From Seison nebaliae (taxonomy: Eukaryota), in assembly GCA_023231475.1 (NCBI GenBank), contig JALJEE010000325.1, positions 1 to 36,301 on the forward strand: 36,301 bases of DNA, in the 5' to 3' direction. The translations under genes and the position numbers were made by a program. Of this stretch, positions 2,243 to 35,716 are shown one piece after another. How positions within the stretch are numbered: position 1 is the first letter of the stretch; each line of letters opens with the position of its first letter. The notes beneath the pieces were generated by a model. It was not told the DNA's origin, searched no databases, and worked only from the letters and a program-made list of their open reading frames with translations.

Positions 2243-3721
2243 TCAAGAGTAATCAGAATAATCAGAAATAGAACCATCATCTCTTTCATAAGTTTTGTAT
2301 TCATCTACCAAATTATTGGCACTTTGTTCTGCCGAAAGAAATTCGTCTTCTGTCATTCCTTCCCCAGTATACCAATGGAGGAAAGCGCGTCGTCTAAACA
2401 TTTTCGTATATTGGTCAAGAATTTTGCGGAAAACCGATTGTACAGCGGTCGTATTAGCAATGAATGTCGAAGTTATTTTCGCTCCTCGTGGTGGAATGTC
2501 ACAGATGACGGTTTTCAACTACAAAAAAGAAATTTTCAATTTTTTCACAAAACTCTTCAAAATTTAACATTGTTTGGAATGAATTGGGCGAAATATCTGG
2601 AATTGGATCTTTGGACCATTGCCATTTCTGTGTCAACTTCTCTCGTACTAAGTCGTCCACGAAATACACCAGCCGCTGTCAAATATTTTCCATTTGTCGG
2701 TTCGATATTTGCCATAATATTCTTAGCATCAAACATTTGAGTAACTAATTGATGGATATTAATTGCACGATACGGTTGATCAGATCGTGCAGTTAATGGT
2801 GCATAACCCGTCACCAAGAAATGGAGACGAGGAAACGGAATCATATTCGTTTGAATTTTCCTTAAATCGGCATTCAATTGTCCAGGAAATCGCATGGATG
2901 ATGACACGCCGGTCATTACAAGTGAAATGAGACGATTCAAATCACTATAAGATGGTTTTGTTAATTTGAGAGTTCTAGTACAAACATCATAAATTCCTTC
3001 GTTATCTAAAATGAATGTCTCATCAGAGAATTCCAATAATTTCTCGATAGTCAAAACTGAATTATATGGCTCGACAACTGTATCACTGACTTTGGGCGAT
3101 GGATAAACACTATACGTACACAATACACGATCAGGATATTCATCTTTAAAATAAGACATTAATAATGAACCTAATCCTGCACCAGTTCCTCCAGCAACCG
3201 CATGACAAAGTTGAATTCCTTGAAAACAGTCACAATTTTCGATCTCCTTCCTCACAATATCCAACATAGGATCTAAAATTTCAAGACCATCAGTGAGGAA
3301 ACCTTTCGCCCAATTATTACCAGTGCCACCTTGACCTTTGAAACAATTATCAGGTCGAAATAACATGCCCATCGGTTCTGCTCTAATCTGATCGATTTGC
3401 TGTGTGTCTAAATCAACTAATATTGATCGCGGAACATATTTACCTCCTTTTACAGATTAATTTTTCAATTTTTTTTTATTTAAAATTAATATAAACCAGC
3501 TGCTTCTGTAAAATAAACATTTAGACGTTCTAATTGTAAATCGGATGTTCCATGAAATCTTCCCGTTGGATCGATTGCATGTTCATCACAAACCGACTCC
3601 CAAAACTTAAAATTATTTCAAAATTTTTATAGAGAACGTTTTATTGAATTATTGAGGAAACTCTATGGCCGATTTGCAATCCAGCGTTTCCCAATTGAAC
3701 AACTAATAATTCACGAACCAT
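2243..3721 (-). CDS. TUBB: Divergent beta-tubulin, ~440 aa, 4 exons (3721-3662, 3605-3497, 3446-2569, 2518-2243)
   Basis: Spliced translation: [35 protein letters not shown]...EAAG|GKYVPR...GNNWAKG...[11 protein letters not shown]...PFPRLHF...[16 protein letters not shown]...[20 protein letters not shown] introns at 3606-3661, 3447-3496 and 2519-2568 restore the frame. Confidence 0.95.
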
Positions 3722-4207
3722 ATCAGAAATGAAAATGAAAAGGAAAAAGAAAGAAAGAAAATTAATATTTCGTATTAATTTTAACTAGATTATCAAATTG
3801 AATATGTAACAAACGTAAAGAAATTGTATGTTAAAATCGATGATAAAATCTCCATCAAATTCTTTTCATATCATCTTCCATCTATTCACAATGGAATAAC
3901 AGATTAAAATTCATATTCTTTTCTATAAACAATTTTGCTAAATTGAAAAAAATTATTTTAATCCTTAGAAATTATTTAAATAATTGAAATAACTCTAATT
4001 ATTTGATGTTTGTTGATAAAAAAGATAAGTAATGATAAAATCATCTTTTATTCTAGCTAGATAACTTTCCTCAAATTTTCAATTATTTGAAATTTCTCAA
4101 CTAATAATTTAACTCAAATAGAGTAGAAAGAAGATGGTAACACAAGTTGTAAGATTTGCTTTATTTTTTTTTTGAATATATTCTAAATATTTGTCGAAAT
4201 GTTTTAA

Positions 4208-4270
4208 GAATATTGACAACAGAACGAATTTGAGTGAATATTGACAACTAAGCGAATTTCAATGAATAGT
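4208..4270. repeat. 28-bp tandem duplication (~2.3 copies)
   Basis: GAATATTGACAAC...CGAATTT at 4208 and 4236, with a partial copy at 4264. It lies just 3' of the coiled-coil gene stop. Confidence 0.7.
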
Positions 4271-4281
4271 GTTCGAATAAT

Positions 4282-6730
4282 TTATGAGGCTGATAAGGAA
4301 ATATTATTATTATTATTGATTTCTGATAATAATAATAACTCGTCACTTATTGCATCATCATCAAAATCGGCGAAATCAAATAATGATTCATAAGATCGTC
4401 GAATTTGATTAATATAATTTTTATAAGACGAATTTTCGGAGGTTAGTTGTTGAACTTTCTTCAAATAATCCAATCGTTCATCCTCCAATTTATCTATCGA
4501 TGTCCGTTGTAATTCCTTCTCTTTATTCAATGTCATTTGCAATTTATCTAATTCGAATTGGAGTTGAGCTACTCGATTTCTATTTATCTCGTCTACATAT
4601 AACGTCGCATCCTCATTAAGACGTTGCTGATAATTGGAACGATGAGAGTATTCCTGATTTTCGGATCGACCTGATCTTTTTGAATGTCGATTGGATGATA
4701 AGGGTGTACGATTTCTATAAGACGTTTGTTGATCTTTTGTTTGAGGAGAATCCTTATCAAATAAATAATCATTCTCATTCTTCTCCTGTTTAAGGTGGTT
4801 GATCTCATTCAACATTTGTTTCATTTCATGCCGATATTCCATATTGATCCCATTCAATTCTTCGATCTCATTCGAAAGATTCTCATTCTTTTTATTCAGT
4901 TTTCTTATTTCATTTTGTTCTATGTCGATTGGAGGATAACGATCAAATTTCCGATAAGAATCATTTGTCGTTCTCTTCAATTCACTTAACTTTAACATTT
5001 CTATTTCATCCTTTAATACATCAATCTCTCGATAAGTATTATCTAATTCATTATTCAATTGATCATTAGTAGAATGTTTCATTTCATTTATCTCATTTCT
5101 CAATGAAACATTCTCTCTCTTCAACATTTGTAATTGCACATCATTCTCTATTAATTTAGTGGAAAGATTCGCTTTCAATTTACCTCGTTCAACACTGAAT
5201 AAATGAAAATAATGAAAGAATTAGTAATGTTAACCATTTATCTTTATTAGTAAGAAGTTCAGTTATTTGATTAGTATTGATGAAACTTCCATCAATTAAA
5301 CGATGAAACACTTCATTCTCCTTTCTCAATATGTCGCTCTCATTATTCGCGTTAGATGATTGATTCGAAGTCTCTTTCAATCTCTCCTCCAATTCCACTG
5401 CACGATTCTTATGCATTCGAGCAGCATTCTTCAATTTAGAGAAACGTTCAACAACCGTCCTCTTCTCCTCATTACACGATTCGAATGCTGAAAGTTTCGT
5501 CTCTAAATCTTTCGCTTTCTTTTGTAACGACTAATAAAGAAATGTTTAACAAGAATTTTGAAATTTGAGAGAAAAGAAAATTAACGGAATTTGATGCTTT
5601 CAATCGATTAATTTGTGCAGTTTGTGAAGTGTTTTGACGTAAATGTTGTTGTTGTAAATCATTCTCCGATTTCTTCCATTTCTGACATTGCTCTTCTAAT
5701 TGTTTCAAACGATTCTCTAATTGTCGTTTCGATTCGGTTGGGAGGACGTCGTTCAATGGATAATTCTCTTGTTCAGAATGAATTGGCTCATACTTCCTCT
5801 CATCATTCTCCATCAATCGATGATAAGATTTTAAATCTTTTAAAAATTTCTGTAATAAATCTTCATAATTCATTAATTCTTCTCTCGTCACATTGGGCAT
5901 GAGACGAATTGGTTTTTTATTTTTTTTAAGAAATGTTTCGGAGAATTCTCGAAGTTGTTCCTCATATTTCTCTCGAAACTTTCTCGTTTGTCTTATTAAA
6001 CTCTCAATGAGTTGCTTCTCCGTCAATGTCTCATCCATCGAGATGTTAGTGAAAGCATTACTGATAATGGGTGACGAATTGAATTTTTTAATGTTTGGAA
6101 TATCTTCTGGTTGTAAATTGAATGATCTTGGCGATGTTAATTCGATGGGCATAATTGATGAATAATCTATAAATTTCTTACATTTTCTCAAATTGTCATC
6201 GCCTCGAATATTCTCGTTGGAGAAACAAAGATTCTTTAATTTGTCATCCGTCAATTTACTTTCCTCGACAGAAACATCTCTCATCATTTCCTTTTTCTTC
6301 CAATTCCTCTCCTCCATCGACGATAAGAGTGATGCTTTTAAGAATTTATCATTTATCTCTTCTATTCGTTTCTGTAAATTACAATTGGATTTATTTGTCA
6401 AATAATTCTCTTTCATCGGTAAGGAATTAGATCGTTTCAATGAATCACAACCCATCATCATCATCATCTGTTTCTTCTTCTTCTTGAGATCTGGTGTAGA
6501 AGTTAATTGTTTCGAATTCGAATTACTTCTATTCATTCTCATTACTGGTACGCTAGCACCGGATTTTTTATGGAAAGAAACTGAATTGACTTGTGAGTTT
6601 AATTTTCTTTTCACATTTCGATCTCTCTAAATGAAATTGATATTAATGGAATGAGTAATTGGAAGAAGGAAAAGGAAACTTCCCAGGAAACATTTGGTTT
6701 CGTTTTCGATAGATAATTCTTCATTCTCAT
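4282..6730 (-). CDS. Uncharacterised coiled-coil protein, ~766 aa, 4 exons (6730-6680, 6626-5586, 5530-5235, 5194-4282)
   Basis: Three long ORFs are joined in frame by GT-AG introns at 5531-5585 and 5195-5234, with a putative first intron at 6627-6679. The C-terminal half is E/K/L/Q-rich with heptad character. The first exon is less certain. Confidence 0.8.
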
Positions 6731-9700
6731 GACACTTCGTCTATTAACGATATTCCCGTTCCGATGTCACATCAATCGTCACGGTTACCAATCATTAATG
6801 TTCATTGATTATTTTAAGAGGATAAGTAAAGAATTATTTTTTTTAATTTGAAGCTTTCTCTAACGTATCAAATAAATGATTTGATTGGAAACGGAAACTA
6901 TGGAAAAGAAGAAAAATGAACATTCTTCATATTCTCGAAGCGAAAAATTTTTATTTAAAAGGAAATTTCTTCTTCCTTTCAAACGAGCGATCGATTGTTC
7001 GCTTGTTCGTTCGTTTTATGAATCAACAACGAAAACTTTTCATGTCAATTATTTAGTGGGATAATTGGAAGAAATTAAATTGACTTACCATTCTAACAAT
7101 TCACCTAGGAAGTCGCCTTCGGGGAATTTCTAATTAAAATTCTTTTTCTCTCTCTTTTCCTCTAAAATTGTCTGTTAATTCATTCTTTTCTCACCTCCGA
7201 ATACTCAACTGGGAAATTGTTGAGGAGCGATAAAGATTTCTCTTCAAAATATTTCAAGATAAGTTTACAGGAAGTCCATCGTTACGGAATTTCATTTAAC
7301 GAGAATTAGTTATGTCATCAATTGAAATGATGATACTCGACGTCCATTTTGGAGAATGTTAATGACTTTTATATCAAATCGTCCCTCAACTATTTATCTG
7401 ACATTGTCTATCGAATGTTTACCTAAATCATTCGTAATGATGTCCATCTTATCTTGTCTCTCTCATCAATCTTTTCAAAGTCACATAATTTATTTAATTA
7501 TTTATTATATTCCCAATTTAATTCAATTCACTTTTTCAATTATTCCATTTCTTACAATTTCTTCTAAAGATGGAATATTTATCGTTTTCTTTCTATTCTT
7601 TTATCATTCATTCTTCCATCACCTCATCGTTAAATAAAGAGGAACGACATTTAAATAACGATATTGTTGGAAAGGAAATTTTTTTATAATTATTCAAAAT
7701 TCTTTCCATTTTCTTCTCCATTCCCGCAATCCGTTGGAGAAGGAAATGTTTATCATCGTCACGATGATAAATTATATGATTGTTGTCGGTCATTTATTTG
7801 CGTGCTTAAGAAAAGGGAAATGATGAAGGTGATTACGAATTCAAATAATTGTTTAGGTGAAAAGAAATATAAATATGTATTAGTCATCTTTATTATTTGT
7901 ATTAATGAAGGAATGTAATGTCAAAGTAATTCTCTCTCTTATCATTCCCTCCTTCTGATTTCCACTCAATGTTTTCAATCATTTTTTAGGTGAAACATTT
8001 TTTTCTTACAGACAATTATTTATGTATGATAGGAAAGATGATTAGATGAATAAGGAAAATATTTCGAATGATATCAAATAAAAAGAAAAGAAAATTAAGA
8101 ATGATTATTAAGTAAGAAAATGAAGATAGATGTTATGTTGGAGAATAAATGAATTTTAATGAAGAGATAATAATTTGCATAAGAAGATTGCGTTCCGATT
8201 GATGAGGGTCATTTGATATAATGTCCAAAAAAAACAAGATAATTTAAAGTTGCGCGGATGAGTTGAGGAATCTATTAGAATCTATTCGTGAGATTTCTCC
8301 CTACTCTCACATCAATTTCAATTCAACCAGAATAATTGAATACATGAGATTTTTGAATAATATTGTTTGGAGAGATTGTTAGATATGTTTAAATGAAAAG
8401 AAATTTACGATACTACTTTCATTGTATTAAGAAAGTTTGGAAGGAAGAAGAATTCATCGTTTTCGAAAGAATTTTTTGGATAAAATGATAGTGCATTTAA
8501 AGGGGAAATGATAAAGAAAAATAGATTAAGATATGAATTTATAAAATTACTTACACGTTCCCATATTGGAATGATGATCAATAACGAATATGATGATGGA
8601 ACAGTATTGGAATTGTAATGCAATGAATGAAAAGAACTCGTAAAATAATGTAGGAGGACGTATCAAAGAGGAGAAATATCTACACGCACACACATACACA
8701 CACAAACACACCCCCATAAATGTGTGTGAAGAATGTGGAGGGAGTGAGAGAGCGAGCATTTCAACTAATTTACACATCATCTTCCATGTATAGGACTCAT
8801 GGAAAGTAACTGATCCTGTGGATGATTAAGGCGTGACTAGCGCCGTCTGCAATAAGAGACGTGAATGAACGGATTTCAATTGTTCAGCTTGTGCCTTCTC
8901 CTATTTTCCACTCTTTTTTTTGTGTTCATTCGAATTAGAAACTATTCGAGAAACGATCAAGCAAATTGTTGAGAAAGAAATGAATAAGAATATGGAAAAT
9001 TTTCCTTCAATTTTATTTTGCAGAATTATTAAAATCTTTCATGTCCTTCTCATCTCTTATGTTTCGTTCTGATTTTTATGAAATTGATAAAGTAAATTAT
9101 TCGAGTTGTCCGTGTGCCAAACAAAAGAAACATTTATTTGTTTATAAGTCTATTACTGTCCGTGAGAGTTTGGATGAAGGAAATATCTTTCGATATTTTT
9201 CTCGCGAATGAATTACTTTGATTATAGAAACGATTGTTCTATAAGAAAATTATCAATTTCCTTCAAATTACCTTCAGCTATTGAATAATTTGTGTGGATT
9301 GTTAATGTGGTAACGTTTTGATAGGGCAGAGAATACATTATGTGTGGAAAAGAATAATAAGTGTGAGTTGTTTAGTCGTAGAATTTGTATAATGTGAATT
9401 CCATCTCTCTTCCCACGTCTTACTCACTGAATGGAAGATAGAAGATAGAAGATGAAATTCCAGTACATCACTCTTATCATAATCGATGGAATATATTGTT
9501 AGATCATCAATAAGTGGATGTGAGTGGGAATTGATTGAACTAGTAAACTTTTCTTGATGAGAATGAGAAAGAGTTTGAATGAGAATTTAAATTTCATGAA
9601 AAGTCTCAGTTCAAATAACCGGCTCGATTTTATAATTAGTCCATTAATTTTTATTTGTTTTCTTTCGTCTTTACCGTTTGCTGATCGATCTTGATTTCTC

Positions 9701-10363
9701 TCAATCATCTACATAATATTTATCGATTTCCGTTATCTATTAATTGCAATGTGTCGATTATATGATCTGTTCTTTCCGTTTGCAAACGGAACATGCGGTT
9801 ATGTTGGAGACGATTGTAAATTGGTAAAACAGAATGAATAATTTCGATTTGGAAGAATATAAGTTAAGAGAAATGGATAGAAGATGAATTGAATTAATAA
9901 TTTGTGTTTCATTCTAATTTTTTTCTTCTACTTATCTATCAAATTCATCATCATTTGTCATTATTTTATTACAATCTTTTTCTTTCTCTCTCTCTCTCTC
10001 TCTTTTTATTTTATTTTTCTAAATCTTCATAATTTATCATTATAAGAAATTTCTTATATCTTATTATTGAAACAAAACATAATTTTTCTTTGATTAACTG
10101 AATTTAGAATTTTAAATTATTTTTGTTGATCATGTCGAATGAAGAATGAGAAGATTGTCTTAATATTCTCAGACACGATCCGACGTGTAATTCTCTTCTA
10201 ATTCTTCCTGTTGTTCACATAGAAATTCTTCTAATTTGTTTGTTGATTTTATTGTTTGTTAGACGGAAATTATATTTTTCAGTTTAAAAGAATATTTCGA
10301 AGATCAGAGGAAAAATTGAGAACTATATTATAAATATTCAATTAATTATTACTCAAAAGCCGA

Positions 10364-13087
10364 ATGATAACAACTTCATCTATCTCATCTTCATTATCGT
10401 CAATTGATGATAATCGATCATCATGTAATTTAATTTTATCATCATCATCGTCGTCGTCGTTATCTTCATCATCATCATCATCATCATTATTATGTCCTAC
10501 ACCAAAATCATCATCTTCTACATCATCACCAGCAACAACAACAGTGACAACAACAACAACATCGATATCACAAACGGATATTCCAATGAATAATAAGAAG
10601 AAATCTCATGAAACTTTTCAATTATATCCATTCATTCATCAAGTTGGAGGACATACGAGTGTGTTCATGTATGATGAGAAGACGATTTGTAAACCGTTGA
10701 ATGATCGGGAATGTCTCCTTTATAACGATTTGCCATCATCTTTATCGAAATATGTGCCACGATATAAAGGCGAGACAAATGTCCATTGGTTCGAAGATGA
10801 TAATTTTGTTTATTTATTGGGAGGATTAAATGGAAAGACAGATGAATCAATACAACAATTATTGAATGAATTAAATGATAAGAAAGGACGACGATTAACG
10901 TTGAAATTGAGAAGATCATTATCAGGAAATGTTGATGGTTTTGTATTGAGTGGAAAGACGGAATATATTTATGAATCTCTTATTTATCCCCAATCATCAT
11001 CATCGACTACTCCATTAACATTGACACCGTCAACGATGAGTGATACAAATTCCAATTCATCTTTGTCATCATCATCATCATCGTCATCATCATCATCATC
11101 ATATTCACCTGTGACATCCAATACGAGAAAGCGAACATTAAACAATCAGTTTAATTCCCATCAGAACTATCATCAAAAATATCATCATATTAATCATAAC
11201 AATCAAATTCTGACAACGACATCTACACTTCATTATTCGGATGGCACCACAAGTTCCAATGAGAATAATTTGACCAATTTCCACAAAGATTCATCCAACC
11301 AAAAATTTATGAGTTCTCTCTCACAAGACATGAAACGTCGTCGTACAACATCGTTGAATCCATGGTGTTCATTGGTGACGATTTGTTGGATGTCTAAAAC
11401 GCGATTACAATTGTTACGTGGTTCGAGTAATCGAAAGAAATTTATGAAACGTGTTTCATATTGTCCACAAACTTCGAAATTTAGAGGAGGAATGACCAAT
11501 TCGATGAATGGGAAACAATTGAAAAGGAATCGTATTAGGAGATCAATTTCATTTTCTCCTTCATCTAATTCAGATGATTTTCCATTGAAATCATCGAGAT
11601 GTCTAGTCCAAATGATTTGTAAGGAATCGATTATTGATGAGATGATCAATAATCGATATAAAAAATTGGAGCATGAACATTTGCATAAGAATCGGAAGGA
11701 GAATATCGAACGACGATCTACACTCGTCTTCCTTCAAAATTGTCAACGTTATATGATGAGAAAATATATGATAAAGAATCATCATAAAATCAACAACAAC
11801 AAGAGTGTGAATAATGATAATGATAATGGTTCGATGGAGAATTCGAAGGAGAATATATCGAAGAAATTAGAAGAAGATGATAATGTAGTAAAATTGGTTG
11901 GATGTCAGAAATTTATGTTGATGGAGAATGTGGTAGCATATTATAAGCGTCCATGTATTCTTGATTTGAAAATGGGAACGAAACATTATGGAGATGATGC
12001 GACAAAAAGGAAGCGTGAATCACAATCACAGAAAGCGGCAATATCCACATCAGCACGTTTAGGTGTACGTGTATGTGGAATGCAAGTTTATCAAAATGAC
12101 AGAAATTTATTTTTATGTCTTGATAAATATCAGGGACTCTCATTATCTATTGAAGGTTTCCGTCACAATCTCTTACAATTTCTTCATGATGGTTATCGAA
12201 TCCGTTTAAGTATTATCCCAATACTGTTGGAGAAATTGTCTCAATTGTATTTGTTGATACATTCGTTAGATACGTGGCGATTCTATTCGGGTTCCATTCT
12301 CTTAGTTTATGACGGTCATCCTGACAAGATTAGTGAAGAGATGAAGAAACGATTTTCATCATCCGATAATTATTTGTTAAAGAATGCTTTGAATTCTTTA
12401 AAGAAATATTTCCAAACTAAATTTACCGACAATCTTCATTATACAACTAATACTCAATATCTCATTTATAAGAAATTATGTCTTCTCTTCAAATGTCGAA
12501 GTGATGGCAATTTTAATCAGATATCTCAGGAACAACTCAAACATTTCTCTCAGAATGATTCATCGACATTCGATCAATTACTCGGTAAATCATTCAAATA
12601 TTATTTGAAGAAATCGCTCGTACTTCTTCCTTCGCCTTCATCTTCTGCCACTTCATCCAATAATTCGTGGCCGGTAGCGGATGTTCGAATGATCGATTTC
12701 GCACATTCAACTCATAAGAATATGAATAAATTGAAAGAACACAAAGGACCAGACAAAGGTTATTTAACTGGACTGGCCAATTTGATTCGAATGTTATTCG
12801 AGATACTCATCGAATACTCTCCTACTTTACCAAAGTCATTTTTCTCACCATCATCACGATCAAATGACAACGATACGGAAACGTCGAATTCGTCAACTCT
12901 CCAATCATCATCGTCGTCGCATCATGACACGAAAATCAATGACGATGATATTAGTGACGGTCCGAACGTCATTTATGTGGAGGATGTGGAAGCTAAATTA
13001 CCAGATGCACCTAATCGCGTACCTCATCGTTTACCTAATAAACCATCTGATATCACATGTATGGATGCATTCCGTTCACATCATTGA
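10364..13087 (+). CDS. IP6K: Inositol hexakisphosphate kinase (IP6K family), 907 aa, apparently one coding exon
   Basis: Motifs [27 protein letters not shown] (PxxxDxKxG), [23 protein letters not shown] and VRMIDFAH are characteristic of metazoan IP6Ks. Long S/T/N-rich insertions separate them. Confidence 0.93.
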
Positions 13088-13189
13088 CACCATCAATCAT
13101 TTATATTTTATATTTTTAATTCAATTTTCAGATTCGTTTCTAAACCAACTCCAATAAATACTTTTTCTATTTTCTATTTCATTCATTTC

Positions 13190-13360
13190 CGCGCGCGTAC
13201 ACACATACACACACACACACACAAAACTTTCTTATACTATTCTTATATTCATATACGTATATACCATATTTATATTATTTATACTTATAACATATATTTT
13301 TATTCACACACACACACATACACACACAAATACACACAAATACACACAAATACACACACA

Positions 13361-13392
<32 letters not shown>
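13190..13392. repeat. Compound microsatellite: (CG)n, (CA)n, TACACACAAA repeats and (TA)n
   Basis: Directly visible runs 3' of IP6K. Confidence 0.9.
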
Positions 13393-16032: not shown

Positions 16033-17068
16033 ATGAGTCAACCATCATCCGATCGATCAAGAAAACGAAACTTGTATGCCAGATGTGATCAGACCACATC
16101 TCCCTGCATCAATGACGAGGAAGAAGATTGTCGAAATATCATTTCCAGTACACCAATCGATACATCGGATGTTCAAACAACTTCTTCAACACTTCAATCA
16201 ATTTTACGTGATCGAATTCCACCTCGCACACCCAAATGTGCTCGATGTCGTAATCATGGTGTTGTATCTGCATTGAAAGGTCATAAACGATTTTGCAAAT
16301 GGCGTGATTGTAACTGTGCCAAATGTACATTGATTGCCGAACGACAACGTGTCATGGCTGCACAAGTAGCATTACGTCGACAACAAGCTCAAGAGGAAAC
16401 AGAAATTCGAGAAATTAGTAAAATTCTTGGGACTCCCGCCGAATTGGTTCTCTCATTACAACGGACCATTGGCAATGATAATTTACCTACATCTCAATCA
16501 CCTTCTGATCAGACATTCAACGAAGAACAGAGTAACATACCGAGTGATGATGAATGCCAGGAACAATATTCTCCTGATACACCATCATCATCATCTAACG
16601 GCTTTTCCAGTAATTCACCAGAATATTCCGCTGAAATTAATTCGAATTTACATTCCGGTTAATATTCTCCAATTAAATTATCTTCCTCTTTTTAATTTGT
16701 TTGTTTTTTGTTTGTTTGTAGCAATGACGAAACTCTTCCCTCAATATGATAATCAATTCCTCTTGCAATTTATTCGCCGTTCAAATGGACAATTATTAGA
16801 CACGTTGAGGAACATGTGCACAATTCAGAAGCAGAACGAAATGAATGACAATCAACCGTCTGATATTAAGCGGAGAAATTGTGCATCGTCAGAAACCCAA
16901 TTCATCAATAACATTCTTCACATAATGTCCAACTGGCCAGGAAACAATAATTTCGATTTGCTCCAAACTACTTTAACCACGTCAGATATGGAGAATAAAT
17001 CGGAGAATAACAAGAGCAAATTTGACAACAAGTTCTCAATTGAATCCTTATCGAACAATGATAAATAA
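16033..17068 (+). CDS. DMRTA: DM-domain transcription factor, DmrtA (Dmrt4/5, Dmrt99B) class, ~323 aa, 2 exons (16033-16657, 16722-17068)
   Basis: [58 protein letters not shown] matches the DmrtA/99B DM domain. After the intron at 16658-16721, [29 protein letters not shown] resembles a DMA (CUE-like) domain. Confidence 0.93.
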
Positions 17069-19145: not shown

Positions 19146-19351
19146 TTTTTATCCTTAGTCGAAGTATTACACCAGAATTTTGGCCTTTTTCTATTCCGTA
19201 TGTAGATGTAGGTATGTATTTTCTATATACAATTCTGTATAAAAAATTATTAAATATATATAGAATTGTAGATAAAAAATACATATCTACATCTACATAT
19301 AGAGTAAAAAAGGCCAAAAACCGGCTGTAATACTTCGACTAAGGATAAAAA
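19146..19351. repeat. ~205-bp fold-back palindrome (MITE- or Helentron-like)
   Basis: Arms 19146-19241 and 19257-19351. The outer 26 bp (TTTTTATCCTTAGTCGAAGTATTACA) are perfectly inverted, around a 15-nt AT loop. Confidence 0.9.
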
Positions 19352-20059: not shown

Positions 20060-21110
20060 ATGAATGAAAAAAAGATATTTATCAATTTTGCAACAAGTGC
20101 CGCGAATAATCGAATAATATATATGGATCATCGAGAATTGTGTGAACAAATGTTCCAAATTTTACCGGCAATGACCGAGTGTATAATGGAGAAAGATGTT
20201 ATGATAAAATTCATAGAATTCATCATTTATAATCTACATCGAATGGATGACCGAGATGAGACGGCTTGTCTCGAATATTTAGTTCGAATTCTCACACCTC
20301 AACTCATCGGTCAAGTGGACGTTGAGCAAAGTATAAAAATTCTACTTATCAAATACATTTCCGCTGCGAATAAAGTGGACAAATATGACCGATCAGTATT
20401 GTTGACATTGCGATGTGATTTCGCTGCCAACTTATTGGCGATGTTACCAGAATTAATCGAATCGACGAACAAACTGATAAATATCCGTCATCTCCTCGAA
20501 ACGTTGTATGTGGTGGAAGAAACGACAATGCCATTCGCCTCACTTCTTTGCAGTTATTCGAAGAATGAGGAATGTGCCAAAATTATTTGTCGATATCTAC
20601 CGGAAAAGAAGTTGATTTCTTGGTTGAATAAGATCGATAATGAAATTGTCTTTTCTGGAATTTTTGGAATGTTGAGAAATTTATCATTTTTTCCAAGTTT
20701 TTTTTTTTTTAATTCTCTAAAAAATTCTTCAATTATTAGTGTCTCATTCTCGACTTTTACAATTGGTACGACCAATTATATTCGAATTGGCGGAAGAGTA
20801 CAAGATGGACTTGGAAGAATTGACGACATGGACGATGGACGGTCGAATGGAGAAAGTTCGATTGAAATGTAAATTCGATTGGAAAATTTTTATTTTCGAT
20901 TTATTGTCACAAATCAGTTCGACTGGCGCTTGTCGCAAATTGATGAGAGACGTCTCACTCTACCAATTAGCACGACAAGTCGATATGGAAAATACTGACG
21001 AAGCATTAAAGGAATCCGTTCAACGATTAATTGCCATTCTCATCAGTGAAGAGAAAGACGACACGCTCAATTATCATGAAGTGTCATTGAAGCCGAACGA
21101 AAAAATTTGA
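20060..21110 (+). CDS. HGH1: HGH1 homolog (eEF2 chaperone, armadillo-like), ~335 aa, 2 exons (20060-20696, 20740-21110)
   Basis: GIFGMLRNLSF..SHSRLL and SSTGACRKLMRDVSLYQLARQVDMENTDEALKESVQRLIAILISEE resemble the HGH1 GTLRNCCF and C-terminal motifs. The intron at 20697-20739 joins the two ORFs. The first in-frame ATG is at 20060. Confidence 0.75.
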
Positions 21111-21150: not shown

Positions 21151-21166
21151 AGTTGTCATGACAACT
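21151..21166. promoter_or_regulatory. Perfect 16-bp palindrome matching the RFX X-box, with a near copy at 21122-21135
   Basis: AGTTGTCATGACAACT, plus CTTGTCATGACAAC 30 bp upstream. Confidence 0.4.
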
Positions 21167-22164: not shown

Positions 22165-22205
<41 letters not shown>

Positions 22206-23579: not shown

Positions 23580-23619
<40 letters not shown>

Positions 23620-24266: not shown

Positions 24267-27200
24267 CTGACAAACGGAAAGGAAATAAAATTTAACGAAA
24301 AAAAAAACGAATTCTAAAAAAAAAAATTTTTTAATTTTTCAAAAAATTAATTGGAAAAATAATAATTATAATAATGAGAAATTATAGAGAATATTTTCAT
24401 TATTTATTTTTAGAAATTCTCGCTTTCTCTCTCTCTCAATGAAGAATGAGAGAGAAAAAATTTAATGATAAATCAAAAGAGAAGAGAAGTTATGAAAAAT
24501 ATTATTGAACTATCTTTCTTCTCGAAACATGTAAGACTACTAATAGAAGAAGAATAAGATTGAAATAATTTGAAAGTTTCATTGGGAAAATCTGTTTCAG
24601 AATGATCTCTCTTTAGGATAAGTTGGAGGAGATAATAGAAAAGGAAAATAAACAGATAGTGAATCTGAAAGAATAAGCTCAAAATTTCATTTTAATTAAC
24701 AACAACGATTACGGACGCATAGAATAAAATTGGATAATAATCGAAAAAGAAATATCAAATTAAGCCGGAAGAGACGCTGATGATGGAATTGAAATAAGAT
24801 GATTCTGATCAATTTCCAGGAAATAGTGTCAATCACCATCTCTTGAAGGCGACGACATGTCGACGTCGAGAGTTCACATTGGAGAGGAGAATTGGTAAGA
24901 AAAATGGGAAATGATGGAAATCGAATAAAATATGTCGATGATTGGAAGATATTAGTCAGCGTTGTCATGGAGATGAAATCGTTCTTTTACTTATTTTCCT
25001 TTCATTACCTTTCTGCTTGAAGAGAAAAGTCTATTTCTAAACAATAATCACTCGATTATTGTCATTTTCCCATTTAGTTATTTCCCAACTCATTACTCTC
25101 ATCAATCGAACATCAGTCAACAGTCTCTGACCACAATTGGAATTGAAGAAAAAGTTAAATTGTCATTCGTCGACTTGACAACGAAGTGACATCGATAAAT
25201 GATACAAATTATTATGATTTGATGGAAGACGTAATAAATTGTGAATGAGTTTCAATGATGAGAAAGAATAGAATGTCCGAAATTCGAACGAGAGACAGAG
25301 AAAGAAATGTGACGAGTGTCGATTAATTTTTTCAGCATTTCCTAATTAATTGGAGGGAAACATGTCGTTCGGGAAGGTGATGAAATGGAGGAAACATAAT
25401 GAGAAATATGATAATCATAATTATCGATGGTAACGAAAAGAACGTCAAGTAATGAAAAGAGAAATCATTTTTTCCTGATTAACTATTCTCGATTATTCCG
25501 TCAAACATTATCATTCCTCTTGTTTTCTATTGACAAATATTTATTTGTGTTGATACCTCCATCTCATTCCACATCTCATCGACCACACGACACGTGTGAG
25601 TGTGGGAGAAGAAGACACGAGTGGAGAACGACAGAAATGATGATTGTGATGCAGATAAAATAGATGAACATTTGAACGAGAATGAAAGATAAATTTTGGA
25701 GAAGAATCATTCATCGAACGGTTGCCATGACGACGAATGAGAGCGCGAACTGAATAAAATACAGAAGTGCGTTGAGGGGAGGGAAGAGATAGCATTCTAA
25801 TTTCAATTTCTATCACTCCAATATTTCGATGATTAGTCACCGATGTAGAGAGCATAAGAAGAAAATACGTATAATACGGGAGGGATAAGATACAATATAA
25901 TTGGAATGATAATAGGAACATCTAAGGGAGACCAATAACTCTTCCTGCACCTCGATATATTTATCTATTTCGTATTATACTGTTGTTTTCTGTGCGATGC
26001 TGAAGACATTCGATTCTCCCTTCTCTATCATCATATAAATATCTCGCAATTATTGATGCTATAGTAACCGATTAATGGGCAGATAATTTATCTCTATCAC
26101 ATCTCTCCCCTACTCTCTCTCTCACTACTCTTACCAATGCTACACATATGTATGTCATATATATTCCTTCAAATCATTCATATCACATATTACTCATCAT
26201 CTCATGTGCACTCAATATCTCCTCACAAACTACTGTACGAATTAAACTAGAACTAGTATGACACATCGAAAATTATTGTAACAAGAAAGTTCGTTTGGTA
26301 AAACTAAAATTATTCAATCAATAAATTCATAAACTTATTTAAATGTTTAAAAAATTTAATTTAATTAATTAATTTTAATAGATTGATGAAAATTAAAAGA
26401 AAAAAACATCAAAAAATTAAAGTGGATGATTTGATCGTGTCGTTTGGAGTGTGTTGATGGTGAGTTTGGAAGAAATGAAGAATGACTCCAATGTAACGAA
26501 ATACTTCTTTAAAACAAACATAATAAAGAAAAGAAGAACTATCCTTCAATTGTTCGAAAGAGAATTGAATGCAACTGAAATGAACATAAAACGGGAGGAT
26601 AGTGGAAGTCATTTACCAAATGAAGAAAACTTTCTTTCCAACTCCTATTTAAAAGACGTTTAGGTACATATACAGTTTCATTTTAACGAATCTCCACATT
26701 GCTTCATTTCTTTTTTTTATGAGAAGTTTTTTCTTCTTCAATCCGAACAATTTTCCACTAATTTTTCTCATGAGCAAAATGGGAAAATTAATCTAATTTG
26801 GAACAAGTGTACCATTTTTTCGTGCACTTCATTCGTTCCATTCGAAAATAATTCTCACAAAACCAACTTTAATTTTTCTGACGAATGAATTAGATTTTAA
26901 AGTTGTAAGAAGTTAAGTGTCTAATATGAAGAAGTGGGAGAAATGAAAGTTGAGAGATAATGAAGTGGAGACGTCCAGAAAACATGTTTGAAAGTTGATG
27001 ACAGGTAACAGGAAATTGAAAAGAAAATTAGTTTGGCGGTTTAACATTTAATCTTAAGTTGAAAATGTGTTTTTGATAGTTTTAATTTGATAGTTATATG
27101 CTCTTCATAACTTCTCATCCTTTTCATATTGGAAGTGACATTGAAATTGATGAAATCGGATCGTTCCGTTTGCAGATCATTATCAGACCATTCCCATCAT

Positions 27201-27677
27201 CTTCAGACGAAGAATGAAATTGATAACTCTTCAATGGCGATGATGAGGAATAATTAAGTGGAGGATGAAAATTAATCAAACTAGACCGCCGTTTGGTACA
27301 TTTTCAAACGTCCCAACAACAACAACGACTGTTCGTTGAAGTGATAAGTGTCTGAACTACAATTCGTAGTGAGACGTACATATTAACTGTTCTATTGCCA
27401 CACTTCCTTCCCATATGGAAATATATGAATAATAATGATGATGATAATCATGATTCATATCCATTCATTCAATAAGAAGTGAACGCTTCTAATTATATAA
27501 TGTTCATTTCTTCTTCTTCTTTTAACAAAGTTCGATGCGTTAACTTCTTCTTCAGTTTATACTTATTTTCCTTTTGTGCATATCTCTCTATATTCCAATT
27601 TGCACATTCATTCATCTATATGTCCGAATAGTCAACTCTCTATGTTATATTCCTTCGTGTTTATCTATCTCTATCTA

Positions 27678-27708
<31 letters not shown>

Positions 27709-28000
27709 TACCTGTGTGTATATGGAAAATATGTGGAAAGAAGAAAAATTTTTACTTATTCATTCCAAGTTCAACAACATCATCATCATCCTTTCTTTTT
27801 CCTGATTCAATGTCACTTTTCTATTACAATTCTATCTAATCCATCATCAGTTCATGATGAAAAATCGTCGGCATTTTCAAATGACAATTTCATTGAAGAA
27901 GATAATTTGAAAAGAATCCATTAATCTTCGAAAACTGTCCAAACATATTAATGAAACTTTATCTTTTTTTCAAAACTTTTCAATGGAAAATTCTTTTTGG

Positions 28001-28137
28001 AAATTTCAGTTTTTTTTCAATGAAATTTCTTTTCTTTCTGAACATTTCAGTTTTTTTCCATCAAATTTCTTTTCTTTCTGAACATTTCAGTTTTTTTACA
28101 TCAAATTTCTTTTGTCGTTGAAAATTTCAATTTTTTC
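28001..28137. repeat. 40-bp tandem repeat (~3 copies) upstream of Flightless-I
   Basis: AAATTTCTTTTCTTTCTGAACATTTCAGTTTTTTT at 28023 and 28063, with a degenerate copy at 28103. Confidence 0.85.
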
Positions 28138-28326
28138 TACTTCTTTCTTAAATTTCAATTTTTTTTGTCATTTCTAAATTTTTTTTAAAATTTCTAATTT
28201 TTCCCATCAGATGATTTTGATTATGGTTCAGGTTAAAGTAAGTAAGTAGTCAATGTTGAGGATGGTAATGCGTTCGTGAATTATCAATCGTTCGAATCAT
28301 AATCACCATTCTTCCTGGCGGTTATT

Positions 28327-31300
28327 ATGGCGCAAACGGGCGTTCTCGCTTTCCTCCGAAATGTCAATTTGGATGGGAACAATTTCTCCGTTCGATTTTC
28401 TTTTTATATTCAATTTTATTCTTGTAATTTTAGTTACCGCAATATATTCCTGAAGATCTGGAACATATGGGCAATTTGCGATCGTTGTCATTGAATGGGA
28501 CACGATTGAAAAGTATTCCATTGAAGCATTTGATTATGTTGGAGAAATTGGTTAGATAATAAATGAGATAATTTTTTCATTTCTCAATTTCATTCTTTAG
28601 GAGAGTCTCAGTTTGAACAATAATAATTTTACAGAAATTCATTCGAAACACAAATCCATTTTTCCCACATTCTCCAATCTGAAAGAATTGTATGTTCGTC
28701 ACAATCAATTGACAGACGACGGATCTCTTCCACAACAATTATTCGAAGAGTCTCATATTGAAATTTTGGTTTTGAATTAATTTTCCATTTTTTTTTCCAT
28801 TTTATGATAATAATTCAGGATTTGAGTTATAATCGTTTAACGGATTTATCCAATTCGTTGGAATATGCGACACATCTCGTCTCTCTCAACATCTCTCACA
28901 ATCAGTTAGTTTCGTTTATTAATTAGAATTTGTTATGAAAAAAAAAACGATCAGAATTCAAACGATTTCCAACAATCTCTTCTCCGCATTGACACAACTT
29001 CGCTTTTTTGACATTTCTCACAACAATATCGGTTAATTAGTTTTTTCTTAATCGATTTTTGAATTTTCTATCTAGAAACTCTCTCGTTACAATTCCGTCG
29101 TTTGACGGAATTGCAGGAATTGAATATCGGAAATAATCCACTTCAAATCCACTCACAAATGAGACAATTGAAAAGTTTGACGAAATTGACCGTTCTCAAG
29201 ATGAGATGTTGTCAACGAACGAAAGATAATTGTCCAATCTTCGACGAATCGATAATGAATATCGAAGGTTCAATTTTACTTTACCGTTTCTGATGGAAAT
29301 AATTTTTAATTTGAAAGAACTGGATTTGAGTGGAAATGATTTAGAAGAGATTCCAAATTTCGTATTCGAATTGAAAAAATTAAAACGACTTTATTTGAAC
29401 GATAATCGATTGACGACAATTCCATCAGAAATCGATCAATTGAATCAATTGGTCATTCTTCAATTATCGCGCAATCAATTGAGGAGTTTGCCGGTTTCAT
29501 TTGTCTATTTGTTCCTTACCGATGAGATGAATGGTTGAAGTTTTGTAGAATAATCTCATAAAATTAGATCGATTGGAACGATTATATTTGAATTCGAATC
29601 AATTGACATTTGATCATATTCCTACAGGAATGGGAAAATTGAGAGAGTTGCGACTCCTCTCATTGAACGACAATCAATTAGAAATGATACCAGAATCGAT
29701 TTGTCGGTTATTTTCCATCATTTCCATCATTTTTATGATTTCCGTCAAATTTTCCATTTTTTCCATTTTTTTTCTTTTTAGTTGTGGGAAATTGAAGAAA
29801 TTATTATTGGAGAAGAATAAATTATTGACGTTACCAGATTCGATTTATGCACTCAAATTGAATATTTTGAATATTAATGATAATTATGAAATTATTTTAC
29901 CCTCGAAAGCGCAAAAGATTCAGAAAGGTGCCGGCGACATGTTCTACAACATCAACTTCGAGTTATCACATCAGTTGATGAAGTTGGCGGAGAAGAATAA
30001 ATTAGATTTCGATTGGCCATCAACACACAATCTTCGCGGTGGTAAAGATCGAGTGGCTCGAAAACGTCGTTTGAAAAATATTTGTCGAATTGGAAAAAGA
30101 TCGACGGAAAATGATTCAAATAAAGCGTTAAATGAAGATGATGATATCGCATCGTCACAAGTCCTTCGAGGTATGAGAGATGTGGCGATAACGAACAATA
30201 AGAAGAATTTGAACGAAAACCATCAAAACGGTATTGATTCGTCGATTAATAAGCGATTGTTGGCGGATGAGGTGTTGGCAAAACAGAAACCAGATACTGA
30301 TTATCGTGATTTATTCGATGACGATATTGGAACGGAGACGGGATTGATTGTTTGGGAGATGGAACATTTCCTGCCGAATCGTCTCGATCGAGAATTAAAC
30401 GGTTCATTCTATGATGGTGATTGTTATATCATTCTTCATACATATATGGATGAGAATGAATCATTGAATTGGCAGATTTATTATTGGATTGGATGTGAAA
30501 CAACATTAGATAAACAAGCTTGTGCAGCAATTCATGCAGTTAATTTACGAAATGCACTAAATTCTCAACGACGAACAATTCGAGAAGAATGTGGAATAGA
30601 ATCATCAGAATTTCTCTCACTCTTCCCCAACAATTATATCACCACATTACATGGAGCAAATACAGCGAGTGGTTTCTATAATATTCCTGGGGAAGGTGAA
30701 GTAATTAAACGTCTTTATCGATTGTCAGAAATGGGACCAAATGCCAACGAATTGACACGACCGAGTAATTTGTGGGCAGAAGCGATGCCACTCCATTATG
30801 GCGCATTAGATCGTCGTCATTGTTTCATTCTACATACAAATGATGTTGTCATCGTATGGAATGGAGAGAGATGTTCACCTGTCATTAGGAGCAAAGCGAG
30901 ATTATTCGCTGAACAAATTAACAAAATGCCAAATCGATTGACGAATAAAAAAGGAGATCGATACGTTTTTGTCGTCTCACAAGAAGCGTCTTTATCTCAG
31001 AAATATTGTGAGGAGAAAAAAGAAATGGAAATATTCTGGTCGGTGTTGAAAGGACCGCCCGAACCAAATTATCTCGTTCCAATGAGCGAAATGATGGGAA
31101 ATGAATCGTCACATCTTCAAGGAAGTGGCGATTGTCCTTCAAATATGAGAGAAGAAGAAATTTGTGAGGAAGTGTTCAATATTCGACAACATCTTTATCA
31201 ATCACTCGTTCTTGCTTATCGTCCTCCCATCATCTATCGTGTCTCGCTGGGACATGGATATCTAGATTTGACTCAAGTCACATCAACAGATGCCGCTCTC

Positions 31301-33476
31301 ATTACACTCGAACGACAATTGTCACAAGCGAAAAATTATCATCGAACAAAATTGAAAAATTCAAAAAAATTTAATAAAGAAAATAAGAAAAAAATAAATA
31401 ATGATGATAATAATGATAATAATGATGATAATGATAATGATGATGTTAATGATGATGATGATGATGATGATTATTCGTTACAGAATGTGTTGAATGAGAA
31501 AGATCTTCCCAAATTGAATGATGTCACACTCACCACATATCGAACACTTAGATCAGATTTATTAGAGTCCAATTCCGTCTACATCATCGATGGATGGAGT
31601 GACGTGTTCGTCTGGTTTGGGAAGACGTCCAATCGAATTCTCCGTACAGCCGCAGTTAAATTGGCGAAGGAATTGAATCTCATGTTCAAACAACGTCCAC
31701 TCTATTCCATTGTTCTGCGAGAGGTGGAAGGAACGGAATCACCAGTTTTCCAATCGAAATTCACCGAGTCAAATTGGCGAAATGAGAAGAGACATCGATC
31801 AAAATCTAATGACAATCAGAAGAAATTGAAAAAGAATAAAAAGAAAGTTTCAGACGAACCGAAATTACATGTCGATCTCTCCGCTCTTTTACGTCCACGA
31901 TATTCTCCCTTATCATATATGGAAGCGATAAATCATTGGAATATTTGTAATGACGCTTTAATCGAAAAGACTCCTGATGCCTTCGTATTAGAGAACAAAC
32001 AATTCGTTCGTCTACCTGAACATGAACGAGGTTTTAATTACAATTGTTTATATTATATTTTAATTGATTAATTTATTTAAATTTTAATTATCATTATTCT
32101 CTCAATTAATTTCAAAATAATCATTTTCTCTAATGATATTTTTAAATTTACAGGAATTTTTTACGCGGGAAATTGTTACGTCTATTTCTGCCAATATTCA
32201 TCAGAATTTCTCACGAATATCATCGGGGAAAATGAATCGGAATCATCAGATTATGAATCCAATTTAAATAGTCATCGAAGTGTCGTTTATTTTTGGCAGG
32301 GTAGAAATGCGACGAATGTCGGCTGGCTCAATTTCTCATTCACGTTAACTTTATTCAATTTTTTCATTTGTGTTTCATTTCCGTTTCAGATTGAGAAAGA
32401 AATTAGAAATGGTCGTGGGAGATAGTTTGGAGATCTATAAAGAATATCAAGTTCTATTAATTCGTCTTTTTAAAAAAATTCATTTTTTATTTATTCACAA
32501 AAATTTCAAATGGAATTTATCATGGAAAAATTAGCAAAAAGAAAGTTCCGTTTTTCTTTCACATTTCCAAGGGCGATTCGTTATAAGACGAGGTCGTCGA
32601 GAGAGTTTTCTAGCGAAGAATGGACAATGTTATCCCGACGAACCGGAACTACTTCAACTTCGTGCCAATTGTGGATGGCAATCGATTCGATGTATTCAAA
32701 TCGATTCATTATCATCAAATTTATGTTCTGCTTTCTGTTTCATATTCTGTGTTCCATTTACTAATGCTTCCAAATCCAATAACAACAACAACAATAATAA
32801 TAATAATAATAATAATAACGAAAGTTTTTTTCATGACGAAAAATCATCGTCATTATCATCATCGTCATCATATCAGATGGGTAATGTGATAGAAGATGAT
32901 GAAGAAGATCGAGGAATAGTTTATGTTTGGATTGGTTCGAACGCCGATCCTCATGAAGCACATTTGGCGGAAGAGATTGCTAATTATATTTATGATGATA
33001 CATATTCCATTCAAGTGATCAATGAGGGACATGAGCCAAAGAATTTCTTTTGGGATTCAATGTCGAGAGGTCGACAAACTTATTCGAACGACGCCGATTA
33101 TTTACGTTCTGTCCGATTATTTCGATGTTCCTGCTCTCCCGGTTATTTCGAGATAACAGAAAAATTAGATTTCTGTCAAGATGATCTCATCGATCACGAT
33201 GTCATGATTCTCGATAATGGAACTAAAGTCTATTTATGGATCGGTCCTTGTAGTTCAGATATCGAGAAGAAGTTGAGTTATAAGAGTGGGGAAATGTACG
33301 TGAATAGTCTGCGACAGAAAGGCGAGAAAAGAAAGATAATTTTCGTGACGAAAACTCACGAATCTCTCGAGTTCACCAAAGCTTTCCATGGATGGACCAG
33401 TCATATCAAATCACCCAAATCGTTAGAGAAGAATATCATTCTTCAAGAGATGTATCAAACGGGCAATATGAATTGA
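28327..33476 (+). CDS. FLII: Flightless-I (LRR + gelsolin repeats), ~1492 aa, 12 exons (28327-28389, 28434-28550, 28601-28768, 28819-28904, 28955-29031, 29076-29267, 29318-29493, 29549-29706, 29782-32030, 32154-32343, 32390-32450, 32535-33476)
   Basis: The N-terminus MAQTGVLAFLRNVNLDGNNF resembles FLII. LRRs are followed by FYDGDCYIILHT, IYYWIG, DKQACAAIHAVNLRN, VYFWQGR and FCQDDL. Eleven GT-AG introns keep the frame throughout (4479 nt in total). Confidence 0.95.
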
Positions 33477-33963
33477 CTATGAATTTCGAATTCCATCAAA
33501 ATCCGTCAAATTATCATCAACCGTTTTTTTGACGTTGTCAATTGGCATTTAAACGTATTAACAACATATCTCTCTCTTATTATTATTATCGTAAAGAGAA
33601 ATCATCTTTTCTTTACCATCCTACTTTCCACCTTCTCAAACGCTCTTCTCCTCCACTTCTTGTTTGTCATTCAATTTTTCTTCTAAATAAAAATTAAACG
33701 GCTATTAATCAAATCAATTCTTATCATCACATTTCCATTAAATACTTAAATAAAAATAGAATTTCAAAAAATTTTTTCTCGTCTAACAATTATTTAAAAA
33801 AAAATCATTTATATGATATATATTATGATATATTGATAATGGAGTTTAATTAAATTTCTAAAATTCTCCAATATAGAATAGATGTCGTTATTTATCTAAC
33901 TAATTCTTCTTTTCGTAGTAGTTGAAGGAGTTGAAAGAAATGAAGATGAAAAAATGGAAATTC

Positions 33964-35716
33964 TCATTTTCTTCCATCGATCAACTTCTCTGCCATCATA
34001 ACAACGGTTGCATTTAAGTTAGTTGAAGTGATGGAAGGCATGATGGAAGCATCGATGATTTGTACGTTCTAAAAAAGGAAAAATTGCAAGAAAAAAATTT
34101 TAGAGAATTAACTTCAATTCCATGAAGGAAACCAGATGAATTGACGACACTGTCACTCTCATCAATTCCCATTCGACATGATGATGATAAATGATGAACG
34201 GTGCCGCCCGTCTCTCGAATATATTTATATAGATCATTATCGTTCTGATATTGGAAACCTGTAAATTGAAATTTTTGATGGAAATGAAAAAAGTGATTGA
34301 ACCTGGAAAGAATTCATCTTTAATCTCATCTCGTAAAGGTGATTCGTGACAAATGAGTCTTGCTTGACGAATTGCTTCTAATGTCATCCATTGGTCATAT
34401 TGAGTGGAGAGATAATTTGGATTGATTAATGGAAGAAGAGAATTGGAACGATTATCTGAATGAATTGAACCGACTGATGTTGGTTTTGTGAGATTTGAAT
34501 ATAATTGAAATCCATCAATTTTATAAAAAGAAGTTTCGTTATCTCGAAGCATAGCAGGAAGAAAATGAATTTGAATATCACTTCTATCATTTCTTTGCTT
34601 AGTTTGAGATGAATTAATAAATGCTCCCATTTCCATATGATTGGAAGCAGAAAATCCATCACCATTAATCAACCATCGAAATATCGATGCTGATTTCCTC
34701 CAATTCGAATATGACATTCTCATCAATTTCGATTTGATTCGTCTCATTCGATATTTGAGTTGAACGGCGAAATGATCTTGAACATTCTCTCCAACATTTT
34801 CCAGACGTTTTTTCAACGGAATTTTCAAAGAATTTTCAATAACATCTTTTCTACCAATTCCACTTCGTTCAAGGAATAAAGGCGATTCGATCGATCCGAG
34901 ACAAATGATGATATTTTCTCCTTTCACTCGGAAACTTGTCGGACTATTGGGATATGTTAATTCGATGGAATTACACCGTTTATTATTCTCATCTAAAATC
35001 ATTCGATGACATTTGACATTTTGAAGAATAGAAATATTTCTCCGAATGGGAAAGAGATAATCGAAGGCTAATGATCGACGAACACCTTCATTAATGGCTG
35101 TATCAAAATATCCATAACCGTTTGATGAATATGAATTAATATCGGGAAGGAAAATCTTTCCGTTATTTTTACAACTTTCCAGAAATAAATCTCCATAACG
35201 ATTACGAGTTAACGGTCCTTTTGACAAGTAGAGTGGACCGGAAGAACCACGTTCATTATAATCACATTTCTCATTTAAAATCGTTTCACTTTTTTTAAAA
35301 TATTTCACACAATTCTCATACGACCACGAATCATCAGCGATACGTTTCGACCATTCATCCAGATCGAACGGATGAGCTCTCAAATGAACCATTCCATTAA
35401 TTTGGGAACAACCACCTAATATCATCCCTCTCGGATATGTAATGATACGATCGTTCAAATTCGTTTGTGGTAACGACTCATAATAAGTTGTGTGTTTGGG
35501 CGAAGTTATGGCATTAGAAATACCGATAGGTATGTGGAACTTCCAAGCATCTTTCAACCAATTAATCTCCTTTCCAACATCCACTACCAAAATATTGGCA
35601 TTCTTATCCTTCTCGTATAATCGACGAGCGACAACACTACCCGCTGATCCACATCCACACACAATATAATCATAAGATAACTTTCTCAAATTAGATAACT
35701 TTCTCAATTGGAACAT
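33964..35716 (-). CDS. GMC oxidoreductase, choline-dehydrogenase-like, ~554 aa, 3 exons (35716-34303, 34258-34113, 34068-33964)
   Basis: YDYIVCGCGSAG (FAD-binding), RGMILGGCSQINGM and VGENVQDH. Splicing out 34259-34302 and 34069-34112 gives the C-terminus TVHHLSSSCRMG...IIDASIMPSITSTNLNATVVMMAEK with the catalytic His/Asn. The basic N-terminus resembles a mitochondrial presequence. Confidence 0.9.

Follow-up and report, generated by a model that had tools for sequence, protein, structure and literature searches.

Introns that begin with GTT in Seison nebaliae, and a likely change in the reading of the donor site

The donor sites (5' splice sites) considered here belong to 21 introns in six genes of one stretch of the Seison nebaliae genome, contig JALJEE010000325.1 of assembly GCA_023231475.1, which was analyzed over its whole length of 36,301 nucleotides (nt) and is called the window below. 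All 21 introns have GT...AG termini and all 21 begin with GTT. The GTRAG-type donor, complementary to the ACUUAC of U1, is not seen, as a purine stands at +3 in 0/21 and G at +5 in 3/21. A first-pass annotation made from the letters of this DNA had listed the 21 donor hexamers and counted T at +3 in every intron, G at +5 in three and exonic G at -1 in eleven; each hexamer was reproduced, every mapped intron proved to be GTT, and both of the remaining counts were obtained again. Within the window the +3T bias is real and lies well above composition. As judged from these sequences, the rule by which the start of an intron is recognized in splicing has likely been rewritten, and the explanation that we favor, with a confidence slightly short of even, is a predicted U1 small nuclear RNA (snRNA) with A opposite +3, combined with relaxed U6 pairing and intron definition.

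The question posed is how a core recognition rule switches across thousands of old introns, and whether U1, U6 or a protein sets +3. In published comparisons the donor-pairing sequence of U1 nearly never changes even when the donor consensus shifts (bioRxiv 10.1101/2022.06.08.495308; PMC10581693). It is a tentative proposal, which could well prove wrong, that an intron-rich animal has rewritten the donor-pairing region of U1, and perhaps of U6, genome-wide, giving GUU starts, no +5G and a narrow length ruler. If true, this would be a case of metazoan co-evolution of snRNA and splice sites across thousands of pre-existing introns. Whatever the mechanism, annotation of the S. nebaliae genome by gene predictors that have learned GTRAG donors is expected to go wrong.

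Mapping of the junctions

Junctions were placed with our own protein-to-DNA spliced aligner, which admits every GT or GC as a donor and every AG as an acceptor and leaves the bases beyond the dinucleotide unscored. It accounts for 14 of the 21 introns, those of beta-tubulin and flightless-I (FLII); two more, in a GMC oxidoreductase gene, come from homology to the structure 9lq0, and five were placed by reading frame only. The introns are as follows, with strand, length, donor hexamer and basis.

3606..3661 (-), beta-tubulin intron 1, 56 nt, GTTTCC, after codon 19; 7/8 homologues
3447..3496 (-), beta-tubulin intron 2, 50 nt, GTTTAT, phase 1 in codon 56; 8/8 homologues
2519..2568 (-), beta-tubulin intron 3, 50 nt, GTTAAA; 8/8 homologues
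6627..6679 (-), coiled-coil gene intron 1, 53 nt, GTTTCC (alternative of 65 nt from 6691, also GTTTCC); frame only
5531..5585 (-), coiled-coil gene intron 2, 55 nt, GTTAAT; frame only
5195..5234 (-), coiled-coil gene intron 3, 40 nt, GTTAAC; frame only, shortest in-frame join
16658..16721 (+), intron of Dmrt (gene with DM domain PF00751), 64 nt, GTTAAT; frame only
20697..20739 (+), HGH1 intron, 43 nt, GTTTTT, DUF384 downstream; frame only
28390..28433 (+), FLII intron 1, 44 nt, GTTCGA, after codon 21; 12/12 homologues
28551..28600 (+), FLII intron 2, 50 nt, GTTAGA; 12/12 homologues
28769..28818 (+), FLII intron 3, 50 nt, GTTTTG; 12/12 homologues
28905..28954 (+), FLII intron 4, 50 nt, GTTAGT; 11/12 homologues
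29032..29075 (+), FLII intron 5, 44 nt, GTTAAT; 12/12 homologues
29268..29317 (+), FLII intron 6, 50 nt, GTTCAA; 12/12 homologues
29494..29548 (+), FLII intron 7, 55 nt, GTTTCA; 12/12 homologues
29707..29781 (+), FLII intron 8, 75 nt, GTTATT, with no stop and no change of frame, the open reading frame (ORF) running on through it; 12/12 homologues
32031..32153 (+), FLII intron 9, 123 nt, GTTTTA; 13/13 homologues
32344..32389 (+), FLII intron 10, 46 nt, GTTAAC; 12/13 homologues
32451..32534 (+), FLII intron 11, 84 nt, GTTCTA; 12/13 homologues
34259..34302 (-), GMC oxidoreductase (choline dehydrogenase-like) intron 1, 44 nt, GTTCAA; frame enumeration and 9lq0 alignments
34069..34112 (-), GMC intron 2, 44 nt, GTTAAT; exon 2 ends at 9lq0 residue 520 and exon 3 starts at 522, frame intact

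With GT or GC permitted, all three tubulin introns are GTT in the alignments of 7-8 of 8 homologues, and alignment without any splice-site rule returned the same lengths (56, 50 and 50 nt) displaced by 1-5 nt. The FLII introns are GTT in 11/11 cases by spliced alignment to 12-13 homologues per intron; one homologue of 12 picked a different GTT for intron 4, while for intron 11 a 130-nt GTC join was preferred by one of 13. Removing the 11 introns leaves a FLII frame of 1,492 amino acids (aa) with a terminal stop only, and the frames of tubulin, GMC, Dmrt, HGH1 and the coiled-coil gene are likewise intact after intron removal. The GMC exons align to the choline dehydrogenase structure 9lq0 over residues 23-465, 472-520 and 522-551, which fixes the two 44-nt introns. 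For the coiled-coil gene (three introns), Dmrt (one) and HGH1 (one), the joins that look most like introns, being short and AT-rich, are GTT and keep the frame; HGH1 gave 0 matches in PDB searches. Three introns, two of tubulin (after codon 19, in codon 56) and one of FLII (after codon 21), occupy what are probably vertebrate positions. Retention of FLII intron 8 would insert 25 hydrophobic residues into the leucine-rich repeat region with no frameshift.

Other sequencing data cover part of FLII. The stretch 28300-29900 is identical in contigs of three sequencing runs (X1, X2 and X3) from which the window may derive and two of which, X2 and X3, also hold low-depth contigs of a second, diverged lineage at about one-sixth of the depth and with ~82-85% exon identity (28637-29691). 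Among the matches listed, the alignment of one such contig ends at 28771, the +3 of FLII intron 3, that of another ends at 29271, the +4 of intron 6, and that of a third begins at the AG of intron 5, the 44 letters before it being unaligned; alignments ending at the predicted boundaries lend those boundaries support. The same matches, in which the donor state is read off the alignment ends and not from the letters, suggest that the second lineage keeps GTT at 2/2 covered donors as the rest of the intron diverges. Matches of 21-44 nt between introns and other contigs were taken as chance in T-rich DNA.

The donor signal and intron anatomy

Beyond its first three bases the donor carries little. 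Position +4 is A in 10, T in 7 and C in 4 introns, +5 is A in 10, T in 5, G in 3 and C in 3, +6 is A in 8, T in 8, C in 4 and G in 1, and +7 is T in 16/21. Measured against the intron background, the information amounts to 0.76 bits at +3 and to 0.07-0.26 bits per position elsewhere beyond +3, a profile that fits the first-pass proposal of a required +3U with tolerated loss of +4 to +6. On the exon side, A stands at -2 in 9/21, and G at -1 is enriched (11/21 vs a background of 19%, P=6e-4).

T follows GT at 40% of 3,045 sites across the window and at 18/28 (64%) of the internal GTs of introns. Against this last and strictest background, 21/21 GTT has P=9e-5, the 16/16 homology-supported introns have P=9e-4, and Fisher's test of 21/21 vs 18/28 gives P=0.0016. 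The 95% interval of the GTT share is 0.84-1.0, so the statement that all introns are GTT holds for the window only.

The introns are likely processed by the major spliceosome. The acceptors are TAG in 12, CAG in 6 and AAG in 3 of 21 and are T-rich upstream, so that the 3' end is pyrimidine-rich with YAG in the T and C cases at -3 (12 and 6, with A in 3). Loose matches to a branch-point motif near the acceptor lie at scattered distances, with none in 4/21 and no consistent motif. The U12-type donor has an invariant extended motif, with A at +3 followed by TCC, and +3A occurs in 0/21. The donor is a transformed U2-type one, and what is unusual about it is the intron-rich animal host together with the loss of +5G.

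Intron bodies are 51.5% T and 30% A, and lengths run from 40 to 123 nt, with exactly 50 nt in six introns and exactly 44 nt in four. This clustering has a simulated P of 1e-4 to 0.03 depending on the choice of null. Lengths divisible by three (3n) are absent among the 18 introns that do not exceed 64 nt (P=7e-4), a deficit that we do not count as evidence, since a 3n intron free of stops would be missed in the frame-only genes. With that caveat of ascertainment, the pile-up at 50 and 44 nt and the lack of 3n introns suggest a length ruler plus selection against 3n lengths.

Possible readers of the donor

We read these introns as short and of GT-AG type, with a start signal reduced to GTT and in many cases an exonic G before it. 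Directly observed are the junctions, a +3T that does not vary, the missing +5G, and intron bodies that are short, T-rich and of narrow length range; on these we build a model of three predicted steps. A change of U1 position 6 to A would give Watson-Crick pairing of U1 with -1 to +3, plus +4A where present; pairing of +4 to +6 with the U6 ACAGA box would be relaxed; and exon contacts at -1G, together with intron definition over short T-rich spans of 40-64 nt, would replace the lost information. This altered-U1 model is favored because +3 is fixed, not merely preferred, and because -1G is retained, its enrichment fitting a helix anchored at -1 to +3 in the normal register. It also draws on the apparent retention of GTT in the second lineage and on Entamoeba, the only +3U lineage that we found in print, whose U1 is compensatory (bioRxiv 10.1101/2022.06.08.495308). 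Over nine donor positions in the standard register, mean pairing is 4.7 with the standard U1 and 5.7 with A opposite +3; allowing the standard U1 a +3 bulge gives 5.6 and a +1 shift gives 5.2. Pair counts cannot separate the register models from the altered-U1 model.

Several points weigh against the altered U1. Its one-pair gain is arithmetic, as any rule fitted to +3T yields it, and a bulged standard U1 does nearly as well. The sample is 21 introns in six genes of one window, five of them frame-only, and the A-rich in-frame inserts of FLII described below could conceal GTC or GC introns. The U1 and U6 of the model are predicted ones, not sequences of S. nebaliae itself: an Rfam scan of the window gave three weak sub-threshold matches and no snRNA (no U1 or U6), and when metagenomes were scanned for U1-like sequences carrying A opposite +3, on the assumption of a standard animal U1 body, nine loci turned up, of which 0 were U1 by Rfam; they are attributed to chance and say nothing about S. 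nebaliae. Part of the precedent is also adverse. Giardia, Trichomonas, Thecamonas and Micromonas retain the standard U1 (bioRxiv 10.1101/2022.06.08.495308), 230 Saccharomycotina genomes switch at +4 with invariant U1 and U6 (PMC10581693), and the two U1 versions of Fritillaria have identical 5' ends, U2AF and N6-methyladenosine (m6A) having changed instead (PMC13326754).

These precedents bear on the strongest alternative, that the U1 and U6 sequences are standard and +3U is set by changed proteins or modifications; we consider it unlikely, yet a serious contender. Its candidates are U1C, LUC7, Prp8, SNRNP27, METTL16 and the pattern of pseudouridine or m6A; +3U might, for example, meet a pseudouridine of U1 or form a G-U wobble pair with the ACAGAG box of U6. 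Most published donor shifts come without snRNA change and track the loss of METTL16 or SNRNP27K (PMC10581693), m6A re-patterning lies behind another (PMC13326754), and U-pseudouridine pairs stabilize helices of 5' splice sites with U1 in human assays (PMC4856993). The published cases, however, concern +4 or G-rich donors and are preferences only, whereas +3 is fixed here in 21/21.

A standard U1 might otherwise pair in a bulged (+2/+3) or +1-shifted register, GT-T-AA-x-T being a displaced GTAAGT. This is improbable. Besides the pair counts, it draws on the resemblance of +4A (10/21), +5A (10/21) and +7T (16/21) to the usual A-A-x-T moved by one base, and on the occurrence of such registers in humans (PMC4856993). 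However, the key +6G, which pairs with U1 C4, is present in 1/21 only, the enrichment of +4A and +5A is non-significant (P=0.07 each), and that of +7T is weak (P=0.02, uncorrected).

We give somewhat less credence to the absence of any new requirement, in which donors have decayed to GT plus T-rich sequence and +3T reflects composition in a relaxed, intron-defined system. The T content of the intron bodies and the 64% of internal GTs followed by T fit such decay, as do the near-background state of +4 to +6 and the unused GTs within 15 nt of donors, 8/11 of which are also GTT. Yet the probability of 21/21 is very small even at 64%, A makes up 30% of the intron body and is found at +3 of zero donors, and the second lineage appears to retain +3T.

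That the junctions are misplaced or selected, with real donors elsewhere or with hidden non-GTT introns, is very improbable. The frame-only genes do offer in-frame non-GTT alternatives, a GTA at 16610 in Dmrt (112 nt) and GTG, GTC and GTA joins of 31-157 nt in HGH1, and stop-free 3n introns are invisible without homologues. Two in-frame inserts of FLII (31280-31510 and 32760-32900, +), Asn/Asp/Lys-rich, low-complexity and inside the gelsolin-like region, also attract intron calls with GTC, GC or GTT donors. But these calls are inconsistent, and the inserts, at 44-46% A and 27-29% T, are A-rich unlike the introns and are read as coding. An aligner with no +3 preference chose GTT in 14/14, the 11 FLII introns were recovered with two homologues of the rotifer group (introns 10 and 11 with one of the two), and similarity to the second lineage stops at the predicted boundaries. 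Least likely of all is a recent origin of the introns by copying of a single introner-like element that starts with GTT. The clustered lengths and a slight excess in mean pairwise score (18.1 vs 16.5 +/- 0.3 in shuffles) speak for it; against it, the best intron pair scores 35, below the shuffled 95th percentile of 37, and three introns occupy the probable vertebrate positions given above.

Neighboring genes and known systems

The window is gene-dense, with ~31% GC, and holds genes for beta-tubulin, a coiled-coil protein, an inositol polyphosphate kinase, Dmrt, HGH1, a forkhead protein, FLII and a GMC oxidoreductase. Its GC content and gene compactness are compatible with the published values, namely 31-36% GC in Seison, bdelloids and Pomphorhynchus and compact genes in Seison and Adineta (PMC8351084), a comparison of values and not a sequence test. 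The nearest FLII matches lie in the clade containing Brachionus plicatilis FLII. The window's FLII forms a long branch that joins the rotifer clade weakly (IQ-TREE LG+F+G4 support 61/74), and in that tree it stands apart from Dimorphilus, flatworms, nematodes and arthropods. A quick tree that was not run to completion joins it to the rotifers with an SH-aLRT of 95, FastTree leaves its position unresolved, and it shares four exclusive residues with rotifers and four with flatworms. Taken by itself, the sequence would be assigned to a fast-evolving bilaterian, perhaps of Rotifera-Acanthocephala or of a different gnathiferan group. An ESM Atlas search with protein P0121 returned generic FLII clusters only, and a scan of viral contigs with FLII found no relative.

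Other observations concern the neighbors. The beta-tubulin at 2243-3718 (-) is unusually divergent, the best full-coverage matches of its largest exon being ~60-63% identical, and a 191-aa open frame with no Pfam match lies convergent with it at 1626-2201 (+). The kinase and forkhead ORFs contain low-complexity tracts like the FLII inserts and show no frame-breaking introns over ~870-910 codons. Upstream of the forkhead ORF, 24267-24308 (-) may be a further GTT...CAG intron, of 42 nt. A segment of 5 nt separates it from a T-rich TAG acceptor; these may be a micro-exon or introns of a 5' untranslated region. At 19194-19304 a hairpin-like Rfam microRNA match falls below threshold (39 bits vs 101), within what looks like a long inverted repeat, located between Dmrt and HGH1 and possibly a miniature inverted-repeat transposable element.

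A literature search limited to sources outside subscription journals returned no near-universal GTT donors in any animal and no donor motifs for Syndermata. No donor motifs are described in the available parts of the Seison genome paper (PMC8351084) and a 2026 Chaetognathifera preprint, and the main text of two cross-species surveys, supplements and figures aside, contains no comparable case in the parts available (PMC10599564; PMC3033335). Globodera donors follow the usual consensus (PMC4901422). Among animals with departures of other kinds, copepods reportedly have GA and GG donors. Fritillaria borealis is also an animal with a rewired splice code, in which 95% of introns depart from GT/AG, U2AF has been duplicated and m6A is altered (PMC13326754), whereas the termini here are canonical GT-AG and only +3 to +6 are altered.

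Partial likenesses are found in humans and yeasts. The U5-class donors of humans, AG//GUNNN (PMC11732430), share with the GTT donors weak +3 to +5 positions and support from exonic -1G, but their +3 is free, whereas here +3 is fixed as U and -1G and -2A are present in only 11/21 and 9/21. About 1.5% of human 5' splice sites use validated bulge or loop U1 registers (PMC4856993). The human shifted-register examples likewise have a pyrimidine at +3, followed in them by AAG and U, but the shifted example needs +6G, which is seen here in 1/21, and GTT is the sole class seen in the window. The +4A/+4U switches of Saccharomycotina, linked to loss of METTL16 and SNRNP27K (PMC10581693), resemble the present case as a lineage-wide shift at a donor position read by both U1 and U6; there, however, the position is +4 and not +3, loss of +5G is not the feature described, and the snRNAs are invariant.

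The closest comparison is with Entamoeba, which has GUUUGU(U) donors and a co-evolved, compensatory U1 (ACAAAC) and which, with Mastigamoeba and partly Physarum, belongs to the amoebozoan exceptions in U1 donor pairing (bioRxiv 10.1101/2022.06.08.495308). As in Entamoeba, +3U is fixed, +7U is preferred (16/21 here and 78-83% there) and the introns are short and AT-rich. In Entamoeba, +4U, +5G and +6U are found in ~88-90% of introns, in contrast to 7/21, 3/21 and 8/21 here. Entamoeba is moreover intron-poor, whereas the host here is an animal whose FLII gene has 11 introns, and the change is known in Entamoeba from U1 as well as from donors, in S. nebaliae from the donors alone.

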